This document shows, piece by piece, positions 2,967 to 60,325 of a stretch of 64,000 nt of DNA (the first letter of the stretch is position 1; each line of letters opens with the position of its first letter). The notes beneath the pieces were generated by a model. That model was not told the origin of the DNA, made no database searches, and saw only the letters and a list, made by a program, of their open reading frames with translations. Both the position numbers and the translations under genes were made by a program. Origin of the DNA: Octopus vulgaris (taxonomy: Eukaryota). The DNA lies in NCBI GenBank assembly GCA_951406725.2, contig OX597829.1, positions 6,696,001-6,760,000 of the forward strand. Reading direction: 5' to 3'.

Positions 2967-3296
2967 AATATATAGATAGATAGATAAATATGTATATGAA
3001 TATGTGTACGTATAAATATATACATGTATATGTACATGTATATATATATAAAATTTAATAAGGGTAGAAATTGATATTAGTCAATTAAAACTGAACACGT
3101 GTTCAGTCCTTTAAATTTGTATGTAAAAATATTTTAATCTTCGGATTTTTTTTAATATGATGGGCCACTTGTTTTAATTGACTAATATCAATTTCTACCC
3201 TTATTAAATTTTATATATATATACATATACATATACATGTATATATTTATACGTACACATATTCATATACATATTTATCTATCTATCTATATATTT
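2967..3296. repeat. Inverted duplication (~125-bp arms) containing the retrozyme-type 3' end motif plus microsatellite flank
   Basis: 2967-3091 is nearly the reverse complement of 3171-3296; arm contains gttttaattgactaatatcaatttctacccttattaaatt(TA)n. Confidence 0.75.
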
Positions 3297-4899
3297 CCAA
3301 CCGTCGATTTATTACCTCCTCATACAGTTGCAACTATTTCTTTCACACTCACACCTATCTCTTTTATTTCGAGCTAGAATAAGCCTCAGAAGTACGTGCA
3401 CACACACACGCATACACACACACACACGTAATGCATACATACATACATACACACATACATGCATACATGCATACATACATACATGCATACATACAAACAT
3501 ACATGCATAAACAGAGACCATTCAACATTAAATATGCAGGTGTAGAGGACCGTTTACAATTTATGTTTAAACATTTTCTTCTACAATTATGTTGGATCCT
3601 CCAGCCTAAATCACCAACTGGTTTATTTCTCCAATTATAAATAAAAGGAACACCTTTCATTTAACAATGTCGTGTAATTCAACCGGATTTTTGTAAAATA
3701 TACCGTACACTGCATGGAATTTTGCTAACCCGACCATAGCTGAAATCAATAACAAAGCCAACAGCTGTTTAAGAAGATGTATGTAGTATAATTTTACTTG
3801 CACCCGACATTTAAACCAAGATCTACTTCGATGCTGGGAAAAGCCCCCTCTAACGGATGTATGAAGGTGAAGACCTTTCAACCGGATAAATGAAGCGGTA
3901 ACGAAACAGCTTCGGCAATAAGAAACTTCTTTTTCCAAAAAATGGTTGTCCTTGTGATTTAAATCCATCTCCTCAAAAACATTGAGACCTGGCTGGAATT
4001 TGCCTGACTCGAGATGGAAAATAATGTAAACAAACCACTGCCACCATCGCTAAATTCACATGTCTCTCCAAATAAAACCGATCACCAGAGACAACTATGG
4101 ATTATATTCAACTTGAAAACATTCGTTGAAAACTTTTTTCTACTTTTTTCGAAACAATCGTTAAGCGACAGGCCGTTCTTCACAAGATTAAGAAAACATC
4201 CAGTAACTTTAATGTCAGTTGTAAACGATGTCGCTTGGATGTCTTTCGTTCCATGTCCCAACCTGAATGATTCAAAATCTCTTTTGAGAGATGGAGCTTT
4301 CTTAAAAGTGATATCTTCCTTCCTATTCTCTGTATAATGTCAGTAAGCTAGAATCTAACACGTGATTTATACAGGCCCGTTCAAAAATTCGCCTATGGTA
4401 GCGAATGTTTCACTCAGCGTCTTGAATTCGTGTTTTAGATTAATCAACCTTCCCTAAAGTGCTTGCCGTGAAGACTTACCTTAGAGTTTGTTAATTTGTT
4501 CATAAGATGTAATTGGTGATGTAAACTAATTACTTCTCTTATATTTTATTATCGTTGTTAACCAGCCAATATGGCAGCGCAGAATTTTCATGCTTACTTC
4601 AAGTATGGTTTTCCATTTAGTTTAGTAGTTTCGTTATTATGTATACTGCAGATTTTTCCTAGATGTTCTTTAAAAGTGATAGCAGCTGTGTATATGAAAG
4701 TATTAATGTTATAATAAATTATCATCATGTGATTCCATGTTGGGACATGGAACGAAAGAGAGATTTCAGGATTTCAAACTTAGTGCATTGTGACTCAATG
4801 CAACTTTCACCATAGCTACAAGCAAACTGTTTAATAGGAGGGCAAAGGGAAGGGAACGAACAGATACTGCTACAAGAGCCTGATATTTTACAGAAAACC

Positions 4900-6450
4900 A
4901 CTAATGTATGTATATATATTTTGCAAAGCACTATGGAAGGTTTGCCAAATTGGATTGCTATAACGTGGACAAATCTTATAGGCAAGACTGAAACCTTGCC
5001 TGATGACTACAAGTCTGTTTCTTGCCTAAACGTTATGTACAAATTGTACACAAGCGGCATTAACCAATTCCCCCAGGATCATTGTGAGTCTAACAACATA
5101 GTGACTTATGAGCAGGCAGATAGACAGAAGGGAGCAGGGATATGTGCCGAACAACTTCTGATGCACAAGCTGTAGAGTTCGAAGAGAAGAAACGCTGTTT
5201 GAGCTTTGCAGCAGTATGGCTTGATTAAAGGCATTCTATTCTATACCTAACTCATGGCTGCTGAAGTGTCTACGTTTTGCAGCGTGCCTGCTGCCGTAAT
5301 TGCTACAATTGAGAGTCTCGGAAAGAACTGAACAACAATTCTTACACTTAGAACTAAGAACGGACGATCGTTTCCAACGTTATAAATATTTCAAGGGAAT
5401 GTTCCAACGAGATACTCTTTCAGTAATTCTCTTCATTTTGGCATTAAATCCATCATAATTCTTGCTACAATAAACATCTGACTGCTTGCTAAGGTCTGCA
5501 ACTGCTAGAGATATTAATGTAATCCATAATTCCTTTGTGAATGACCTCAAGGCTTATTCTAAAAATGTTTACAATGCCAAAAGACCGCTGGAATTAATAA
5601 CATTTTAAGCTGACATAGGAATGGAATTTGACCAAAACAAATGTTCATATTTCATTGTCGAAAGCGGAAAATGTGTCCCCCATATCCAAAAACCTGTGCA
5701 TCAATGGTTTCCTAATTTCCCCTGTTTTACACATAGAATACTACAACTACTTAAGTATTGATGAAAACATATACGATGGTGTCTTAAATAAAGATTGTGA
5801 CCCGTGAATATGAACCAGACTTAGGAACTATGGGATCGGAACTCTCCTCTTACAACAAGACAGTAACTTACTATGCATTTTCAGTGCCAATACTGATTCC
5901 AGCATTTGGGATACTTTCTCTATAAGAAATCCATTTCATTAATACTAAAATCCGTTGGATCCTGACATCAATTGGAAATCTCTTGAGAAAATAGTCTCTA
6001 TCTAATAAGAGATAACGGAGGTATAGGCTTGAGAACAGTGCAGATAGTCTTCGAATGTCGAATAACTTCACTCAGACAGCAAAAATAAATACAGCACTGA
6101 AAAGTGAAGAGAATAATATCCTACGCGCCATTAGCAAATTCCTTAGGAAACAAACTGTAACTGATGAACTCCAATACAATCCCCTAATTTCCGGACTGAC
6201 ATACCTCAAAGAAGACCTGTTTGTGAAACGTTCATCATACGAAAAGAAGAATAGGCAAGGGTATTTTTTCCGAAGACTTGAATATGACAATAATATCGAC
6301 AAGAAGAGCAGCCTCTCTTCGACTCGTTACCTTTACATCACATCATAAATTGAAAGCTATGTATTTTCAATCCAAGAACAGGAGATTGTTACGAAATACC
6401 CAATGAACAAAAGAGACAGTGAAGTCCTTGGAGCTCCAAGATGTAACCGA
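4900..6450 (+). mobile_element. Decayed non-LTR retrotransposon RT, R4/Dong-like
   Basis: Frameshifted RT motifs: DYKSVSCLNVMYKLYT, GAGICAEQLL, GMFQRDTLSVILFILALNP, FVNDLKAY, DIGMEFDQNKC, and C-terminal SIQEQEIVTKY typical of R4/Dong elements. Confidence 0.75.
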
Positions 6451-12852: not shown

Positions 12853-13022
12853 GTATGTATACATGTGTATGTATACATATATTCATATGTATATATGTGT
12901 ATGTATGTATATATGTATATATATACCTATATATGTGCCACTGTATACATATATCTGTATATATGCATATATATATACATGTAGACGTATTTCTATAAGG
13001 TAGACTATGGTAGCGGTACTGG

Positions 13023-13480
13023 ATATTAATAGTTATCGCCAAGCTAATATGGCAGTCCATAAATATAGGACGAAAGCTGCCGTTGATTAGCCCCAAGTGG
13101 CCATCGAATCTAGGTAGCTATGTGACACACGAACCTGTGTCCATTATAACCTTCGAACAGGAGAGGTCAGCCACTCCCCCTTGCCCTTTATCAGGGTATT
13201 TGCCCTTTATCAATGCAGAGTAGCCGAACCCAGCAGCCGTCGCTACTGACCGTCTGTTGGAAGGATTATTTACCTAAATTCAGTGGAATGCATCTACTGG
13301 TATTCAAACCTAGAAATATTATTATTTCTAAGTCTCTCTAAAGGAGACTACAGCAGCGGTAGTCAGAAAACTAGTCTCTCACATATCTAGCTAGAGGCGA
13401 TGGTCACTTGGAGCTAATCAACGGCAGCTTTCGTCCTATATTTATGGACTGCCATATTAGCTTGTCGATAAATATTAATA
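13023..13480. mobile_element. Fold-back element, family B
   Basis: ~95-bp terminal inverted arms (tattaat...gccaagctaatatggcagtccataaatataggacgaaagctgccgttgattagc); hammerhead remnant TTGATAA-AGGG caaata CCCT-GA on minus at ~13190-13213. Confidence 0.7.
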
Positions 13481-13550
13481 TACGTACATATATATAGATA
13501 TATATATATATATATATATATAAATATATAAATATATATATGTATATATA

Positions 13551-14309
13551 GGCAGGGCTGGCCTGCTAGGCAGCCGGCCGAATGCTAGAAAGAGATCATC
13601 AACGATCAAACACCAGAACCAAATTTGGCGGGCAGGCCAGCCCTGCCTATATACACATATATTAGAATTTTCTCTGACTCCTCAGATTTTTTGAATGCTG
13701 GACTACTGGTTTTAAATTGATATTAAAATTAATATTAATTTATCTCCCTCATTACTTAAATATTGAAATAAATACGTTCCCTAGTAGTAAGCACTAACCG
13801 CAGTGAATTATTCACTGCAGTCCTTCGGTTCAGGATTTTCTTAGCGCGCCAGAGCCAAGACATTTGAAATTTTATCCCCGATGTAAACGGTAAAACTAAG
13901 CACGTGTCTGTCTTGACACAGAGAGCTGGGGTTAGTTTTACAGTTTGCATCTCGATGACCGAATGTACTGATGAAGTCACGGACATTTGAATTATGTAAG
14001 TAATTCTTTTGTTAAAGACCGAAACCGAGGTATGCATTTAAGTCTGTTTTTTATTTAAATTTTCATATGTCCTGCCCGCCAAATTTGGTTCTGGTGTTCG
14101 CTGAATTCTTCCTCTAGAGAATTTCCCTTGTAGTTTGATCGTTGATGATCTCTTTCTAGCATTCGGCCGGCTACCTAGCAGGCCAGCCCTGCCTATATAC
14201 ACATATATTAGAATTTTCTCTGACTTCTCAGATTTTTTGAATGCTGGACTACTGGTTTTAAATTGATATTAAAATTAATATTAATTTATCTCCCTCATTA
14301 CTTAAATAT
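13551..14309 (+). mobile_element. Retrozyme-like element: 546-nt monomer plus ~130-nt partial repeat, inverted 5' segment, within (TA)n
   Basis: 13632-13762 repeated at 14178-14308 (period 546); 13551-13635 is the reverse complement of 14071-14096 and 14134-14193; one HHR in the monomer. Confidence 0.8.
13962..14038 (+). ncRNA. Type-I hammerhead ribozyme motif
   Basis: AATGTA-CTGATGA-aGTC...GACc-GAAA-CC GA GG-TA-TGCATT: 6-bp stem I, canonical core, predicted cleavage after 14032. Confidence 0.8.
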
Positions 14310-14526
14310 AAATATATATATATATAAATATATATATATATAAATATATATATATATAATATATATATATATATATAAATATATATATAATATATATATA
14401 TATATACATATATAAATATATATACATATATATATACATATATATATATATATACAAATATGTATATATATATATAAATATATATATACATATATATACA
14501 TATATAAATATATATACATATATAAT

Positions 14527-14600
<74 letters not shown>

Positions 14601-14672
14601 CATATATATATATACACACATATATATACAAATACATATATATACACATATATATATATGCATATACATATA

Positions 14673-16602
14673 CATATGCCAAAGAAACAGCTACGGTGCA
14701 CTGTAGGATAGGGCCACTCCTTGAAAAAGAAGGCACACTCACAGGAAAACCAATGAGGGTAAGTGAAATACTGAATGAGCAATTCAAGAGTGTTTTCACT
14801 CCACCCCTTGGGCATTTCCAAATCAGCAATCCAACTGACTTCTTTAACACTGCAGATATAGAATCAGAGGCGGCGACGATAAATTACATCGATATAAAGG
14901 AAGACGATGTAATAAAGGCTATAGATGAAATGAAAACAGACTCAGCTATTGGCCCCGATGGATTCCCGGCAATCCTCCTAAAAGTATGTAAGAGAGTCCT
15001 AGCAAGACCACTGCAGTTCCTCTTTCAGAGCTTCCTTGCAGCTGGCAAACTTCCAAGAAAACTGAAGGAAGGTAAAATATGCCCTATTCATAAAGGAGGT
15101 AGCAGAGCGGAGGCCAAGAACTACAGACCTATCTCTCTCACCTCACACATCAGCAAGGTCATGGAACGAATAGTCAGAAGGAAACTAATCACCTTCCTTG
15201 AAGAAAATGATTTGCTGCCTGACACCCAACATGGTTTCCGACCAGGAAGAAGCTGCTTAACTCAGCTCCTGCAGCACTATGACTGGGTGCTGAAACAACT
15301 GCTCAACCACTCTAATGTGGAAGTCATATATCTCGACTTCGCAAAGGCCTTCGATAAAGTCGATCATGGAATGATATGTCACAAACTGCGTGATCTTGGC
15401 ATAGTTGGAAAACTAGGAGAAAGGCTTCATGACTTTCTGAAGAATAGAAGTCAGGTGGTAGCAGCCAATGGGGCCACTTCCATTAGCACGCAAATAGTGA
15501 GCGGTGTCCCGCAGGGCACTGTTTTGGGACCACTACTGTTCATAATGGCCCTCTCAGACATGCCCTCAGCCACGCAGAGAGCCACGATCACAAGTTATGC
15601 AGATGATACAAAAGTTTCACAGGCAATACAGAACCCTGAAGACACTAAGCACCTGCAATGTGAGCTGGACGAAATATACAAGTGGGCTGAAAAGAATAGC
15701 ATGCAGTTCAATGCTGAAAAGTTTCAAGCTTTTTACTATCAGCATGCAAAACTGAATGCAATACCCAATGAATACACTGGACCCGGAGGGATTGCAATCC
15801 CAGAGGCACAATCAGTGCGTGACCTGGGTATTCACATGAGTGATGACGCAAACTTTCATGTACATGTTGCTAAACTGACAATGAAATGTAGACGGCTGGC
15901 TGGATGGATTCTTAGAACCTTTAGAACAAGAGAACAAGAAACCATGATGGTCCTCTGGAAGACACTTGTCCTAAGCCACTTTGACTATTGCTCTCAGCTA
16001 TGGTCACCATCCAGTGTCAAGTTGATCACAGAACTTGAGGCGATCCAACGAAGCTACACGAAGAAGATAGCCTCTGTGCAGCATATGAGCTACTGGGAGA
16101 GACTCAAGAGATTAAAGCTCTATTCCCTGGAGCGTAGGCGAGAAAGATATGCCATGATATATATCTGGAAGATCCTGGAAGGTCTTGTCCCAGACTTTGG
16201 CATCGAGAGTCACATAAATGCCAGAACCGGACGCCACTGCGTAGTACCAAGGACTCCAAATTTTCCATCAAGATGTAGGACAAGATATTGTGATAGCCTG
16301 GGCTTCAGAGGCCCACGGCTCTTCAATATCCTCCCGAAGAACCTGAGGGACCTGCATGGTGTAGATGCGGATGTCTTTAAAGTAGGACTGGATCTCTTCC
16401 TGTCAGGTGTCCCGGATGAACCAACTTCACGGCAGGAGGCGCAGATGAGGGCAGCTGCATCGAACTCTCTCATGCATCAGATGGCGTTTGCTAAAAAGCA
16501 TCCGTGAGGTAAAACCGTGTAGCAAACCAAATGGCGGTGCCCCAGCATGGCCACAGGCCATTAGCTGAAACTGGAAAATCAAAATCAAATCAAATCAAAA
16601 TC
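14673..16602 (+). mobile_element. 5'-truncated CR1-type LINE with 3' UTR and (AAATC)n tail, inserted in (TA)n
   Basis: Open RT ORF, short 3' UTR, tail aaaatcaaaatcaaatcaaatcaaaatc at 16575-16602; TA repeats on both sides. Confidence 0.92.
14696..16507 (+). CDS. LINE ORF2 reverse transcriptase (endonuclease domain missing through 5' truncation)
   Basis: 603 aa without stops: [61 protein letters not shown]. Confidence 0.93.
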
Positions 16603-41868: not shown

Positions 41869-42152
41869 CAACAATTGAGGGTAAAATTAATTAATTATTA
41901 ATCAATTTCACCAAGTGTTCAGTATGCAAAGGGACCATTTAAGGCGAATTCAAATTATTACAATATATAAAAGGGCTTAGTAAAATAAATTACTTTGCCG
42001 CATACTGAACTCATTAGAAATAGCAGCTAAAAAACTTTTTTAAAAAACCATTTCTAATACTTAAAGAAAATCTCTCTCGTATAGTGTTTGGTCAACTCAA
42101 CTCACGAAAGTTTGGGGGTAAAGACATAAAAAAATCAAATGCAAAGGTTATT

Positions 42153-42204
42153 TGAGAACGTACGTTTCAAGATTAGTCATCAAGACACTTCTATCATCAG
42201 CTCA
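42153..42204 (-). ncRNA. Minimal type-I hammerhead ribozyme motif (monomer 1)
   Basis: TGAG-CTGATGA-tAGA..GTC ttgat GAC..TCTt-GAAA-CGTACG-TT-CTCA; palindromic stem III ACGTACGT. Confidence 0.75.
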
Positions 42205-42714
42205 GAAACTCCTTGGTTTGGATTTGAAAACACTGAAAGTGAGAGCATACTCTTTCGGCCTCTCATCGCCTTCGAAGATCTGCTCGTAACTAACAGTGCC
42301 AACAAACTCAAACATGCAAGCGAAGAATTTCTGCCCTCCCCTTTCCACCAGCGTGGGTTAAAATCAACAAACACTCTGCTTATTTCGGTAAAATCCGAAG
42401 CATTAATTAGAGGGAGATTAATTATAATTTCAACAATTGAGGGTAAAATTAATTAATTATTAATCAATTTCACCAAGTGTTCAGTATGCAAAGGGACCAT
42501 TTAAGGCGAATTCAAATTATTACAATATATAAAAGGGCTTAGTAAAATAAATTACTTTGCCGCATACTGAACTCATTAGAAATAGCAGCTAAAAAACTTT
42601 TTTAAAAAACCATTTCTAATACTTAAAGAAAATCTCTCTCGTATAGTGTTTGGTCAACTCAACTCACGAAAGTTTGGGGGTAAAGACATAAAAAAATCAA
42701 ATGCAAAGGTTATT

Positions 42715-42766
42715 TGAGAACGTACGTTTCAAGATTAGTCATCAAGACACTTCTATCATCAGCTCA
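42715..42766 (-). ncRNA. Minimal type-I hammerhead ribozyme motif (monomer 2)
   Basis: Identical to 42153-42204, 562 nt away. Confidence 0.75.
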
Positions 42767-43997
42767 GAAACTCCTTGGTTTGGATTTGAAAACACTGAAA
42801 GTGAGAGCATACTCTTTCGGCCTCTCATCGCCTTCGAAGATCTGCTCGTAACTAACAGTGCCAACAAACTCAAACATGCAAGCGAAGAATTTCTGCCCTC
42901 CCCTTTCCACCAGCGTGGGTTAAAATCAACAAACACTCTGCTTATTTCGGTAAAATCCGAAGCATTAATTAGAGGAGATTAATTATAATTTCAACAATTG
43001 AGGGTAAAATTAATTAATTATTAATCAATTTCACCAAGTGTTCAGTATGCAAAGGGACCATTTAAGGCGAATTCAAATTATTACAATATATAAAAGGGCT
43101 TAGTAAAATAAATTACTTTGCCGCATACTATGCGGCAAAGTATTTATTTACTAAGCCCTTTTATATATTGTAATAATTTGAATTCGCCTTAAATTCCTTG
43201 CATACTGAACACTTGGTGAAATGATTAATAATTAATTAATTTTACCCTCAATTGTTGAAATTATAATTAATCTCCCTCTAATTAATGCTTCGATTTTACC
43301 GAAATAAGCAGAGTGTTTTTGTTTTAACCCACGCTGGTGGAAGGAGGCAGAAATTCTTCGCTCATGTTTGAGTTTGTTGGCACTGTTAGTTACGAGCAGA
43401 TCTTCGAAGCGATGAGAGCGAAAAGTATGCTCTCACTTTCAGTGTTTTCAAATCCACCAAGATTTCTGAGCTGATGATAAGTGTCTTGATGATAATCTTG
43501 AAACGTAGTTTCAAATAACCTTTGCATTTGATTTTTATGTCTTTACCCCAAACTTTCGTGAGTTGAGTTGACCAAACACTATACGAGAGAGATTTTCTTT
43601 AAGTATTAGAAATGGTTTTTTAAAAGGTGCTATTTCTAATGAGTTCAGTATGCGGCAAATAATTTATTTTACTAACCCTTTTATATATTGTAATAATTTG
43701 AATTCTTAAATGTCCCTTTGCATACTGAAACTTGGTGAAATTGATTAATAATTAATTAATTTTACCCTCAATTGTTGAAATTATAATTAATCTCCTCTAA
43801 TTAATGCTTCGGATTTTACCGAAATAAGCAGAGTGTTTGTTGATTTTAACCCACGCTGGTGGAAAGGAGGGCAGAAATTCTTCGCTTGCATGTTTGAGTT
43901 TGTTGGCACTGTTAGTTACGAGCAGATCTTCGAAACGATGAGAGGCCGAAAATATGCTCTCACTTTCAGTGTTTTCAAATCCAAACCAAGGAGTTTC

Positions 43998-44049
43998 TGA
44001 GCTGATGATAGAAGTGTCTTGATGACTAATCTTGAAACGTACGTTCTCA
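43998..44049 (+). ncRNA. Hammerhead motif in the inverted arm
   Basis: Same sequence on the plus strand; a deletion-damaged copy lies at 43467-43513. Confidence 0.7.
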
Positions 44050-44240
44050 AATAACCTTTGCATTTGATTTTTTTATGTCTTTACCCCCAAACTTTCGTGA
44101 GTTGAGTTGACCAAACACTATACGAGAGAGATTTTCTTTAAGTATTAGAAATGGTTTTTTAAAAAGTTTTTTAGCTGCTATTTCTAATGAGTTCAGTATG
44201 CGGCAAAGTAATTTATTTTACTAAGCCCTTTATATATTGT

Positions 44241-44477
<237 letters not shown>

Positions 44478-58975: not shown

Positions 58976-59022
58976 ATATATGAAAGAATGGAGTTGAACG
59001 ACGAATTAACAAAATTCCTTTA

Positions 59023-59105
59023 TTTTCGACATATGTTTCGAAGGCTGCATATTCCTAATTGCGAAGGAATAAGGAGTATATTATGCCGCTTTCTCATCAG
59101 GAAAA
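59023..59105 (-). ncRNA. Type-I hammerhead ribozyme motif in an inverted PLE pseudo-LTR
   Basis: TTTTC-CTGATGA-GAAAGCGGCAT...ATGCAGCCTTC-GAAA-CATATG-TC-GAAAA: canonical core, G10.1-C11.1 pair, GUC site, palindromic stem III. Confidence 0.8.
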
Positions 59106-59189
59106 GCAAGGAACTTATGTCAACATCAAGATGCACGAAAAACTTTTAGATGACTGCTCACACGGAGCTCATAGTAATAATCACTATCT

Positions 59190-60325
59190 GACAGGATGTA
59201 TAATAGGCAGTATGGGCGTACTGTCCCTTATACCCATCCATTGATGTTGAATTTTGCTGTGGAGAAATATATGGAGAAATGTATATCAACAATGCTGATG
59301 ATCTAGACAACGTTAATGATCTAGAAGCTAACATTTTGGAGAGCATCCAGCAAATAACTAACTCCATGCATCAGAGTATAGAAATAACGATAGACTGCTC
59401 TAGTAAGCATCCTAACTATAGATAACCTGTTTTAGATACTGAACTCTGGCTAGAAACGAAGAACAGTAAGGTTCAGATCCTTCACTCTCATTTCTCCAAA
59501 CCCATGGCCTCTAAATAACTTGTTCTCAAGAACGCAGCGATTGCGGACAACGTCAACTACAACATTCTGAAAGATGACTTAGAGAAAGTGATGAGGTATG
59601 TGTCTGGCATGTGCGATCCTGTGGAATTGGAAAGACACATACAACACTTCATCCACCACATGCAGTTCTCTGGCTACAACTACAGGGACAGGATGAGAGT
59701 GTAAAAAGCAGCCAGGAGGACTAAGTACAAAGCCATCATAGGGAGTGACGCTAAGGAGATTTGCTCGCTGCACAGGAGTAAATCCTAGAACAGCCGGGAA
59801 AGAACCAGTAATAAGATAGATAAGGCCAACACTTGGTATGGCAGCAAAAAATTCCAGAGTGTCCTATGCGGCGAACCAGCATGCCTTTTTAGAAAACATT
59901 AATTAAAGCTAATCTACGAATTAAAGTAGTGGAAAGGCCTGGCGCCCCTTTAAATTTCCTAATCTGCAATACCTATCACTTTGATAAGTACCCCTGTATG
60001 GAGTACAATTGTGTTGTATGTAGGATGAACCCACGGGTTAATTGTAAGGTTAGGAATGTAGTGTGTAGCTTACGATGTACTGAGGGATAGTGCAGAAACC
60101 TGACAACTACCTACATCGGGGGGACTGCACGCAGTATAGGAGCGCATACAGGTGGATCTTGGCGAGAGCTCAATAAAGGGAAAAGCTCGTCAGTACTTTA
60201 CCAACATACTCATGGAACAATTAATAACATAGAGGTTAAAATACTATCGACAAATAGACAGATTACAGAAGCTACATACATAACTGTAGACAGACCGAAC
60301 GTCAATAGAAAACATGAATGGAACA
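59190..60325 (+). mobile_element. Decayed Penelope-like element (RT C-half plus GIY-YIG endonuclease)
   Basis: PVLDTELW, HFSKPMAS, QFSGY, then NCVVC...NCKVRNVVCSLRC...YIGGTARSIG and RQITEATYI...NRKHEW. Confidence 0.85.

Follow-up and report, generated by a model that had tools for sequence, protein, structure and literature searches.

Structure of the repeat at positions 13551-14309

The window analysed here is a 64,000-nt stretch of the Octopus vulgaris genome (contig OX597829.1, positions 6,696,001 to 6,760,000, forward strand). At positions 13551-14309 it holds a copy of a 546-nt repeat unit, made up of a long forward arm and a short inverted arm. With unit positions (u) counted from u1 = 13632, the copy and its flanks comprise the following features.

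13488-13550, no strand: left (TA)n target tract
13551-13611, minus strand: inverted arm, segment 1 (u501-u546 and u1-u16), stopping at end A
13609-13636, minus strand: inverted arm, segment 2 (about u440-467)
13632-13636, no strand: GCAGG microhomology joining the 5' ends of both arms head-to-head
13632-14177, plus strand: full 546-nt non-coding unit, 38% GC
13648-13763, plus strand: first copy of the A-B 'tail' (u17-u132), the best-conserved part between the sister families
13876-13943 (u245-u312): long hairpin whose sides co-vary between subfamilies
13925-13928, plus strand: hot spot of arm 5' ends (u294-297)
13962-14038, plus strand: type I hammerhead motif with a 6-bp stem I and an intact core, predicted to cut after 14032 (u401)
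14178-14309, plus strand: partial second turn (u1-u132), stopping at end B
about 14306-14677, no strand: right (TA)n target tract

The forward arm (13632-14309) measures 678 nt, or 1.24 turns of the unit. The direct repeat (13632-13774 and 14178-14320, spacing 546) has one mismatch in the first 132 nt. The longest stop-free frame of the unit is 93 aa, its GC content lies below the 45% used as a retrozyme criterion, and its fold beat 100 of 100 shuffles (z -5.65). In unit length, number of turns, the terminal direct repeat of ~130 nt, the non-coding nature of the unit and its position within (TA)n, these results agree with a preliminary description of this DNA. That description had also reported an inverted 5' piece joined through GCAGG; the microhomology is present, but the piece consists of two segments separated by a 33-nt deletion with AAC microhomology at the joint, which had been missed. 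The outer limit of segment 1 is ambiguous, with the match continuing within the TA tract as far as about 13536. On its left side the copy adjoins a MITE-like element of ~500 nt (12990-13490) with long terminal inverted repeats, which lies between (TA)n tracts, while an unrelated 5'-truncated LINE-type reverse transcriptase frame (14660-16507; Pfam RVT_1, E 1e-30) is located to the right.

The hammerhead motif

Stem I of the motif pairs 13962-13967 with 14033-14038, and the core consists of CUGAUGA (13968-13974), GAAA (14021-14024) and GUA directly before the predicted cut. Loop II is long and carries a GNRA-capped hairpin, stem III has only 2-3 bp and a near-palindromic loop, and the first pair of stem II (positions 10.1/11.1) is an A·C mismatch in the young subfamilies. 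The hammerhead, at first called canonical, is therefore not fully so. The core is intact in nearly all of 49 family copies, and the commonest core change within the family affects the variable seventh position. Rfam, searched at the gathering score, gave no match, and in the minimum free energy structure of the isolated 91-nt segment stem I was formed and the catalytic arrangement was absent (z -1.07).

To assess the stems, 15 hand-picked sequences of the 546-nt family and related families were aligned. Stem I is paired in 100% of these sequences, with two-sided changes in four of its six pairs. Its covariation of 0.60 (0.602) was reached by none of 500 shuffles and compares with at most 0.135 in slid controls, which are the better guide since kinship among aligned sequences can beat shuffles without any structure. 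The first pair of stem II is G-C, A-U or G-U in 9 of the 15 rows and unpaired in six, namely five young A·C copies and one diverged family-1 row with U as the 3' letter.

With its A·C mismatch and so short a stem III, the motif is expected to cleave weakly as a monomer. Stem III, being short and palindromic, would fit cleavage as a dimer or with the help of a protein, such as has been reported for motifs of axolotl and anole. According to the accessible part of a recent preprint, cleavage in vitro failed for eight of nine Xenopus retrozymes that had been predicted (bioRxiv 10.64898/2026.07.22.740005). In the one Penelope-like element (PLE) that has been reconstituted, as far as covered by the available text (PMC11167929), RNA that had not been cut served as the main substrate, and mutation of the ribozyme left insertion normal, so that the hammerhead may be dispensable.

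A young family of dispersed insertions

A first look at the 2.8-Gb genome gave 1374 family candidates, and one 25-mer of the unit has 339 exact matches in it (reversed control pattern, 0). The 546-nt element belongs to a young dispersed family of several hundred copies. We mapped 81 loci, not counting repeat fetches and a segmental duplicate. Of these, 26 were the best DNA matches (a choice biased to full units), and the other 55 came from the first contigs, in the order listed. These loci hold 139 arms of at least 40 nt, with a median length of 521 nt. Sixty-two of the arms are longer than 546 nt, with seamless turns at an exact 546-nt period, and 23 carry at least two whole hammerheads. The tandem arrangement that the preliminary description proposed to look for is accordingly present, as head-to-tail arms of up to 2142 nt (3.9 turns), and long clustered arrays of the satellite type were not seen in the 81 loci, where the family is dispersed. 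No cluster of more than five hammerheads was found among the first 100 of the 339 pattern matches.

The outer ends of the arms adjoin TA or CA repeats in 133 of 135 classifiable cases; target-site duplications are unreadable inside (TA)n. Contigs from five sequencing runs (four of them guessed to be RNA) cover the unit; as they carry no strand, end, circle or level information, they count neither for nor against the proposal.

Arm ends follow a two-site rule

The 3' ends of the arms, read in arm sense, occupy two fixed sites separated by about 112 nt. End A lies at u17-31, with ten ends slightly earlier (A'), and end B at about u123-143. Random circular permutation among the genome copies, another proposed check, was rejected, as only the 5' ends vary. 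Fifty-five of the 81 loci are two-armed and 26 one-armed. The two-armed copies comprise 42 A+B, 9 A'+B and 1 B+B, no A+A and 3 with another end, while the one-armed copies end in B (15) or in A or A' (11). Classifiable pairs are therefore heterotypic in 51 of 52 cases (P about 1e-14 under independent 50:50 choice).

The A-B interval corresponds to the Penelope 'tail'. The family displays the insertion signature of EN+ PLEs, that is a partial tandem, an inverted 5'-truncated copy and a tail at one end only, together with a bias for (TA)n targets as in Neptune, Hydra and Naiad. The copy at 13551-14309, with its short A arm and its 1.24-turn B arm, is a daughter and not a source; having one hammerhead, it cannot excise a monomer.

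Inverted arms could in principle arise from a single cDNA that folds back, from later gene conversion or from assembly errors. Such an origin would account for variants common to both arms, and a palindrome at 41950-44250 of the window may be a product of this kind. However, 16 of the 42 A+B copies have arm lengths that fit neither fold-back geometry of one cDNA, the outer ends differ in a fixed way, and the arms bear independent later mutations, which makes this explanation scarcely credible for the family.

5' ends of the arms and the predicted cut site

The 5' ends of the arms are spread round the unit, with two exceptions. The first is u294-297, where 9 of 139 ends fall versus 0.9 expected in an interval chosen after the fact; it coincides with the inner end of the 3' side of the u245-u312 hairpin. 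This hot spot may mark a transcription start or RNA 5' end, or a stall of the reverse transcriptase; a transcription start would mean that some templates are linear.

The second exception is the predicted cut site, at which six arms genome-wide stop versus about 1.8 expected (P about 0.01), an excess that was counted without a matched control site and is possibly inflated by a 2-nt TA microhomology. A seventh, diverged copy also begins there. These ends lend modest support to cleavage in vivo. At the same time, ~98% of the passes read through the site, and the template must thus have been mostly joined or uncut there.

A template that is a linear monomer cut at both ends, on which the reverse transcriptase jumps without a scar from the 5' end to the 3' end and so mimics a circle, would explain both the six arms stopping at the cut site and the single haplotype per insertion described below. 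Yet 49 hammerhead copies showed no indel at the cut site, and with ~2% of passes stopping there (6 versus 339) the jump would have to be precise and ~98% efficient. We regard this template as improbable.

Each insertion carries a single haplotype

At 55 polymorphic sites, mismatches amount to 2.2% between the arms of a locus and 1.5% between turns, versus 21% between loci. Comparing the two arms within each of 34 two-armed loci gave 33 differing sites, while comparison with other loci predicts 276. Since a foreign arm matches equally well in 10% of cases on average, a single locus of the main subfamily does not settle the matter by itself. Some variants are private, in the sense that they were seen in only one of the 81 loci sampled out of several hundred. 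Fourteen loci repeat such variants from turn to turn and 10 have them in both arms (one of these cases, L054, is doubtful), whereas recurrence would account for ~0.06. Locus L134 has four private variants in four to six copies, and L024, L030, L040 and L132 behave likewise. Another 204 discordant sites represent later mutations that were not homogenised.

From these patterns we infer that a single unit sequence, there at the time of insertion, served as the template of both arms, and amplification from monomer to multimer would seem to recur in each subfamily. The source of one-haplotype arms and turns is most simply a circle; two RNAs from one dominant source locus are a possible alternative for the shared haplotype. 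It had been argued earlier that more-than-unit length implies a circular RNA. The 1.24 turns alone are too weak for this, because any pLTR plus tail gives a terminal repeat, and it is the seamless multi-turn arms throughout the family and the repeated private variants that speak for a circle. A single circular template is on balance probable.

The main competing explanation is twin priming by a PLE on linear, uncut read-through transcripts of arrays, with a promoter inside the unit near u296, arrays renewed by DNA duplication or conversion, and the hammerhead as a passenger. The weak-looking ribozyme and the nine 5' ends at u294-297 would fit this, as would two literature findings, as far as the accessible text of the sources goes: internal initiation on unprocessed RNA in vitro (PMC11167929) and the local tandem amplification proposed for retrozymes (bioRxiv 10.64898/2026.07.22.740005). 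Linear copying cannot lengthen an array, however, and young arms of 3.9 turns are present. Private variants are shared by every turn and by the two arms, while the 204 discordant sites argue against homogenisation; nor did the first 100 of the 339 pattern matches contain a cluster of more than five hammerheads. We therefore consider linear transcripts an unlikely, though not negligible, template, and prefer the circular one.

A sister family and further relatives

There is a sister family with a 530-nt unit, which also forms a closed cycle and is older (copies about 90% alike). The two units are identical in 359 of 563 columns (64%) and in about 80% of the tail, and the sister family gives compensatory changes in the hammerhead stems. 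Its 33 two-armed cases, a crude count in which some loci were fetched twice, comprise 23 A+B, 3 B+B, 2 A+A and 5 other; the A+B rule is thus looser than in the 546-nt family.

The closed cycle in both families bears on the possibility that the copies are pLTR fragments of an autonomous PLE yet to be located. All end features do match PLE insertions. Yet in each of the two sister families the end of the unit leads back to its start, and arms that run past B all continue into the next turn. In 85 family loci, the 81 mapped ones plus four more, no arm is contiguous with a PLE ORF, and matches to PLE proteins occur in only five of these loci, apart from the arms (at least 1 kb away in the four with arms listed). 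An origin as pLTR fragments is thus very improbable, and the scenario that the preliminary description had set against its own reading, in which all copies are simply pLTRs attached to a PLE ORF, does not apply to these loci. Its retrozyme-like, PLE-mobilised reading is supported by the closed repeating unit, the absence of an ORF-linked arm in these loci, the arms of up to 3.9 turns and the PLE-type ends.

More distant relatives of the unit were seen at L291 (reverse complement, 4760-5500), L191 (2270-2865), L040 (227-311) and position 3124-3212 of the window; in the L291 relative, too, stem II is mismatched at its base. The palindrome at 41950-44250 is a near-perfect 2.3-kb structure of another hammerhead unit with a period of 562 nt and four hammerheads. 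Its left turns are 99.9% alike, it has weak matches to the tail model, and it recurs elsewhere in the genome; part of its right arm, with numerous small deletions, is possibly an assembly artefact. One further motif that was searched for had no match in the genome.

Proposed mechanism and relation to known elements

Taken together, these data point to a family of likely non-autonomous retrozymes, which a PLE enzyme probably moves by priming both (TA)n strands on one probably circular RNA. Mobilisation of the PLE type of a non-autonomous unit is well supported and very probable. In the proposed sequence of events, arrays with two hammerheads would be transcribed, cut and ligated to a 546-nt circle, and a borrowed PLE protein with reverse transcriptase and GIY-YIG activities would nick both strands within (TA)n. 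Reverse transcription would set out from A at one nick and from B at the other, and each cDNA would extend round the template for a random length, in most cases past the ribozyme site, before the two cDNA ends anneal by microhomology. An arm of zero length would leave a simple copy ending in A or B. The wider reading, for which we see even chances, is that such rolling-circle twin priming, with one strand primed at A and the other at B on one ribozyme-made circle, accounts for the tandem, inverted and tail structure of PLEs generally, and that the genome harbours a radiation of 530-560-nt circles.

Metazoan non-LTR retrozymes and their proposed dependence on PLEs have been published (PMC7229834; bioRxiv 10.64898/2026.07.22.740005). 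As far as the accessible parts of these two reports go (Cervera and de la Pena 2020; Li, Clavereau, Pollet), the 546-nt family resembles these elements in its low-GC non-coding tandem units with one type I hammerhead each, in forming dimers to multimers, and in residing in a genome with autonomous PLEs. Its unit is longer than the 170-400 nt of the former report and lies inside the 51-972 nt of the latter. In contrast to the long arrays of published retrozymes, it forms dispersed insertions of 0.1-3.9 turns. The present analysis maps the ends, inversions and tails of these insertions; the available text of PMC7229834 does not use the word 'inverted'. Kinship with the pLTR of an autonomous PLE was seen for 24 of 57 Xenopus retrozyme families in the part of the preprint available (bioRxiv 10.64898/2026.07.22.740005).

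EN+ PLEs of the Neptune and Hydra clades, as described in the accessible text of PMC8557442 and PMC3846280, share partial tandems, an inverted 5'-truncated copy, a tail (described there at one end only), (TA)n targets and a type I hammerhead upstream of the ends. Unlike these elements, the 546-nt family has no ORF, and its tail has about 112 nt versus 30-40 nt. The purified PLE protein PAc Poseidon (Frangieh et al. 2024; PMC11167929, available part) cuts and extends both strands, is predicted to dimerise, and starts reverse transcription at two internal RNA sites bounding the tail. The family agrees with this in vitro system in the proposed priming of both strands, in the two start sites bounding the tail and in AT-rich targets. 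PAc Poseidon, however, showed no strand difference in start site, while the arms of the present family almost always differ in site and share their haplotype. Non-autonomous Chlamys PLEs such as MRC1 (PMC8557442, available part) are likewise non-coding and multicopy with head-to-tail derivatives; their 3' end is similar to that of an autonomous family, and canonical hammerheads are missing from most of them, whereas the 546-nt family has a hammerhead and no parent among about 10 PLE families sampled.

In the open-access papers searched, no such cephalopod family and no such end or haplotype footprints are described. Copying of animal retrozymes as circles by PLEs has so far been proposed from co-occurrence and pLTR kinship, and the origin of the Penelope tandem, inverted and one-sided-tail structure is an unsettled question in the accessible parts of the PLE literature cited. 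The family offers countable footprints on both questions, namely the rule of one A and one B end and the single haplotype through arms and turns. Its unit is also a small defined template for reconstitution, with two mapped start sites and one predicted cut site. If rolling-circle twin priming holds true, the family would be a genomic record of this process.

Candidate PLE partners

Autonomous PLEs are abundant in the genome, with intact ORFs of the Neptune type (781 aa; Pfam RT and GIY-YIG) and the Hydra type (841-908 aa). The latter have the DKT and CxCX5C motifs given in the accessible text of PMC8557442, and the 841-aa protein had no Pfam match. Tails measure 40 and about 27 nt in Neptune-type elements and about 90 and 150 nt in Hydra-type elements, and four of five inverted insertions of autonomous PLEs inspected have mixed ends. 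Among about 10 families sampled by way of GIY-YIG loci, Hydra-type loci and a tail covariance model, with the top candidates scored, no PLE end was significantly like the unit or its tail.

Two sets of candidates were rejected. Matches of the tail model near PLE ORFs (L287, L291, L191) are nested relatives of the unit and not pLTRs. One Hydra-type tail reached z 3.6 in comparison with the family-1 tail, while other members of this Hydra-type family reached z of at most 1.6 and a region outside any pLTR z 4.0. By analogy, given the long tails and the similar hammerhead layout, a Hydra-type partner would be our guess.

The dominant Neptune-type PLE (L091-L102) has a 781-aa frame, a second frame upstream and a 40-nt tail; by eye, no canonical hammerhead was noticed in its pLTR. 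Young Hydra-clade-like PLEs with intact frames of 840-1090 aa and tails of about 90-150 nt are very abundant (L227, L231, L291-L302), and one of them, L298, is a full tandem with a period of 3623. The window itself contains, on the minus strand at 58985-59200, the 3' end of a Hydra-type PLE that ends in (TA)n, and its pLTR, which bears a type I hammerhead, is 77-80% like the pLTRs at L288, L291 and L295.
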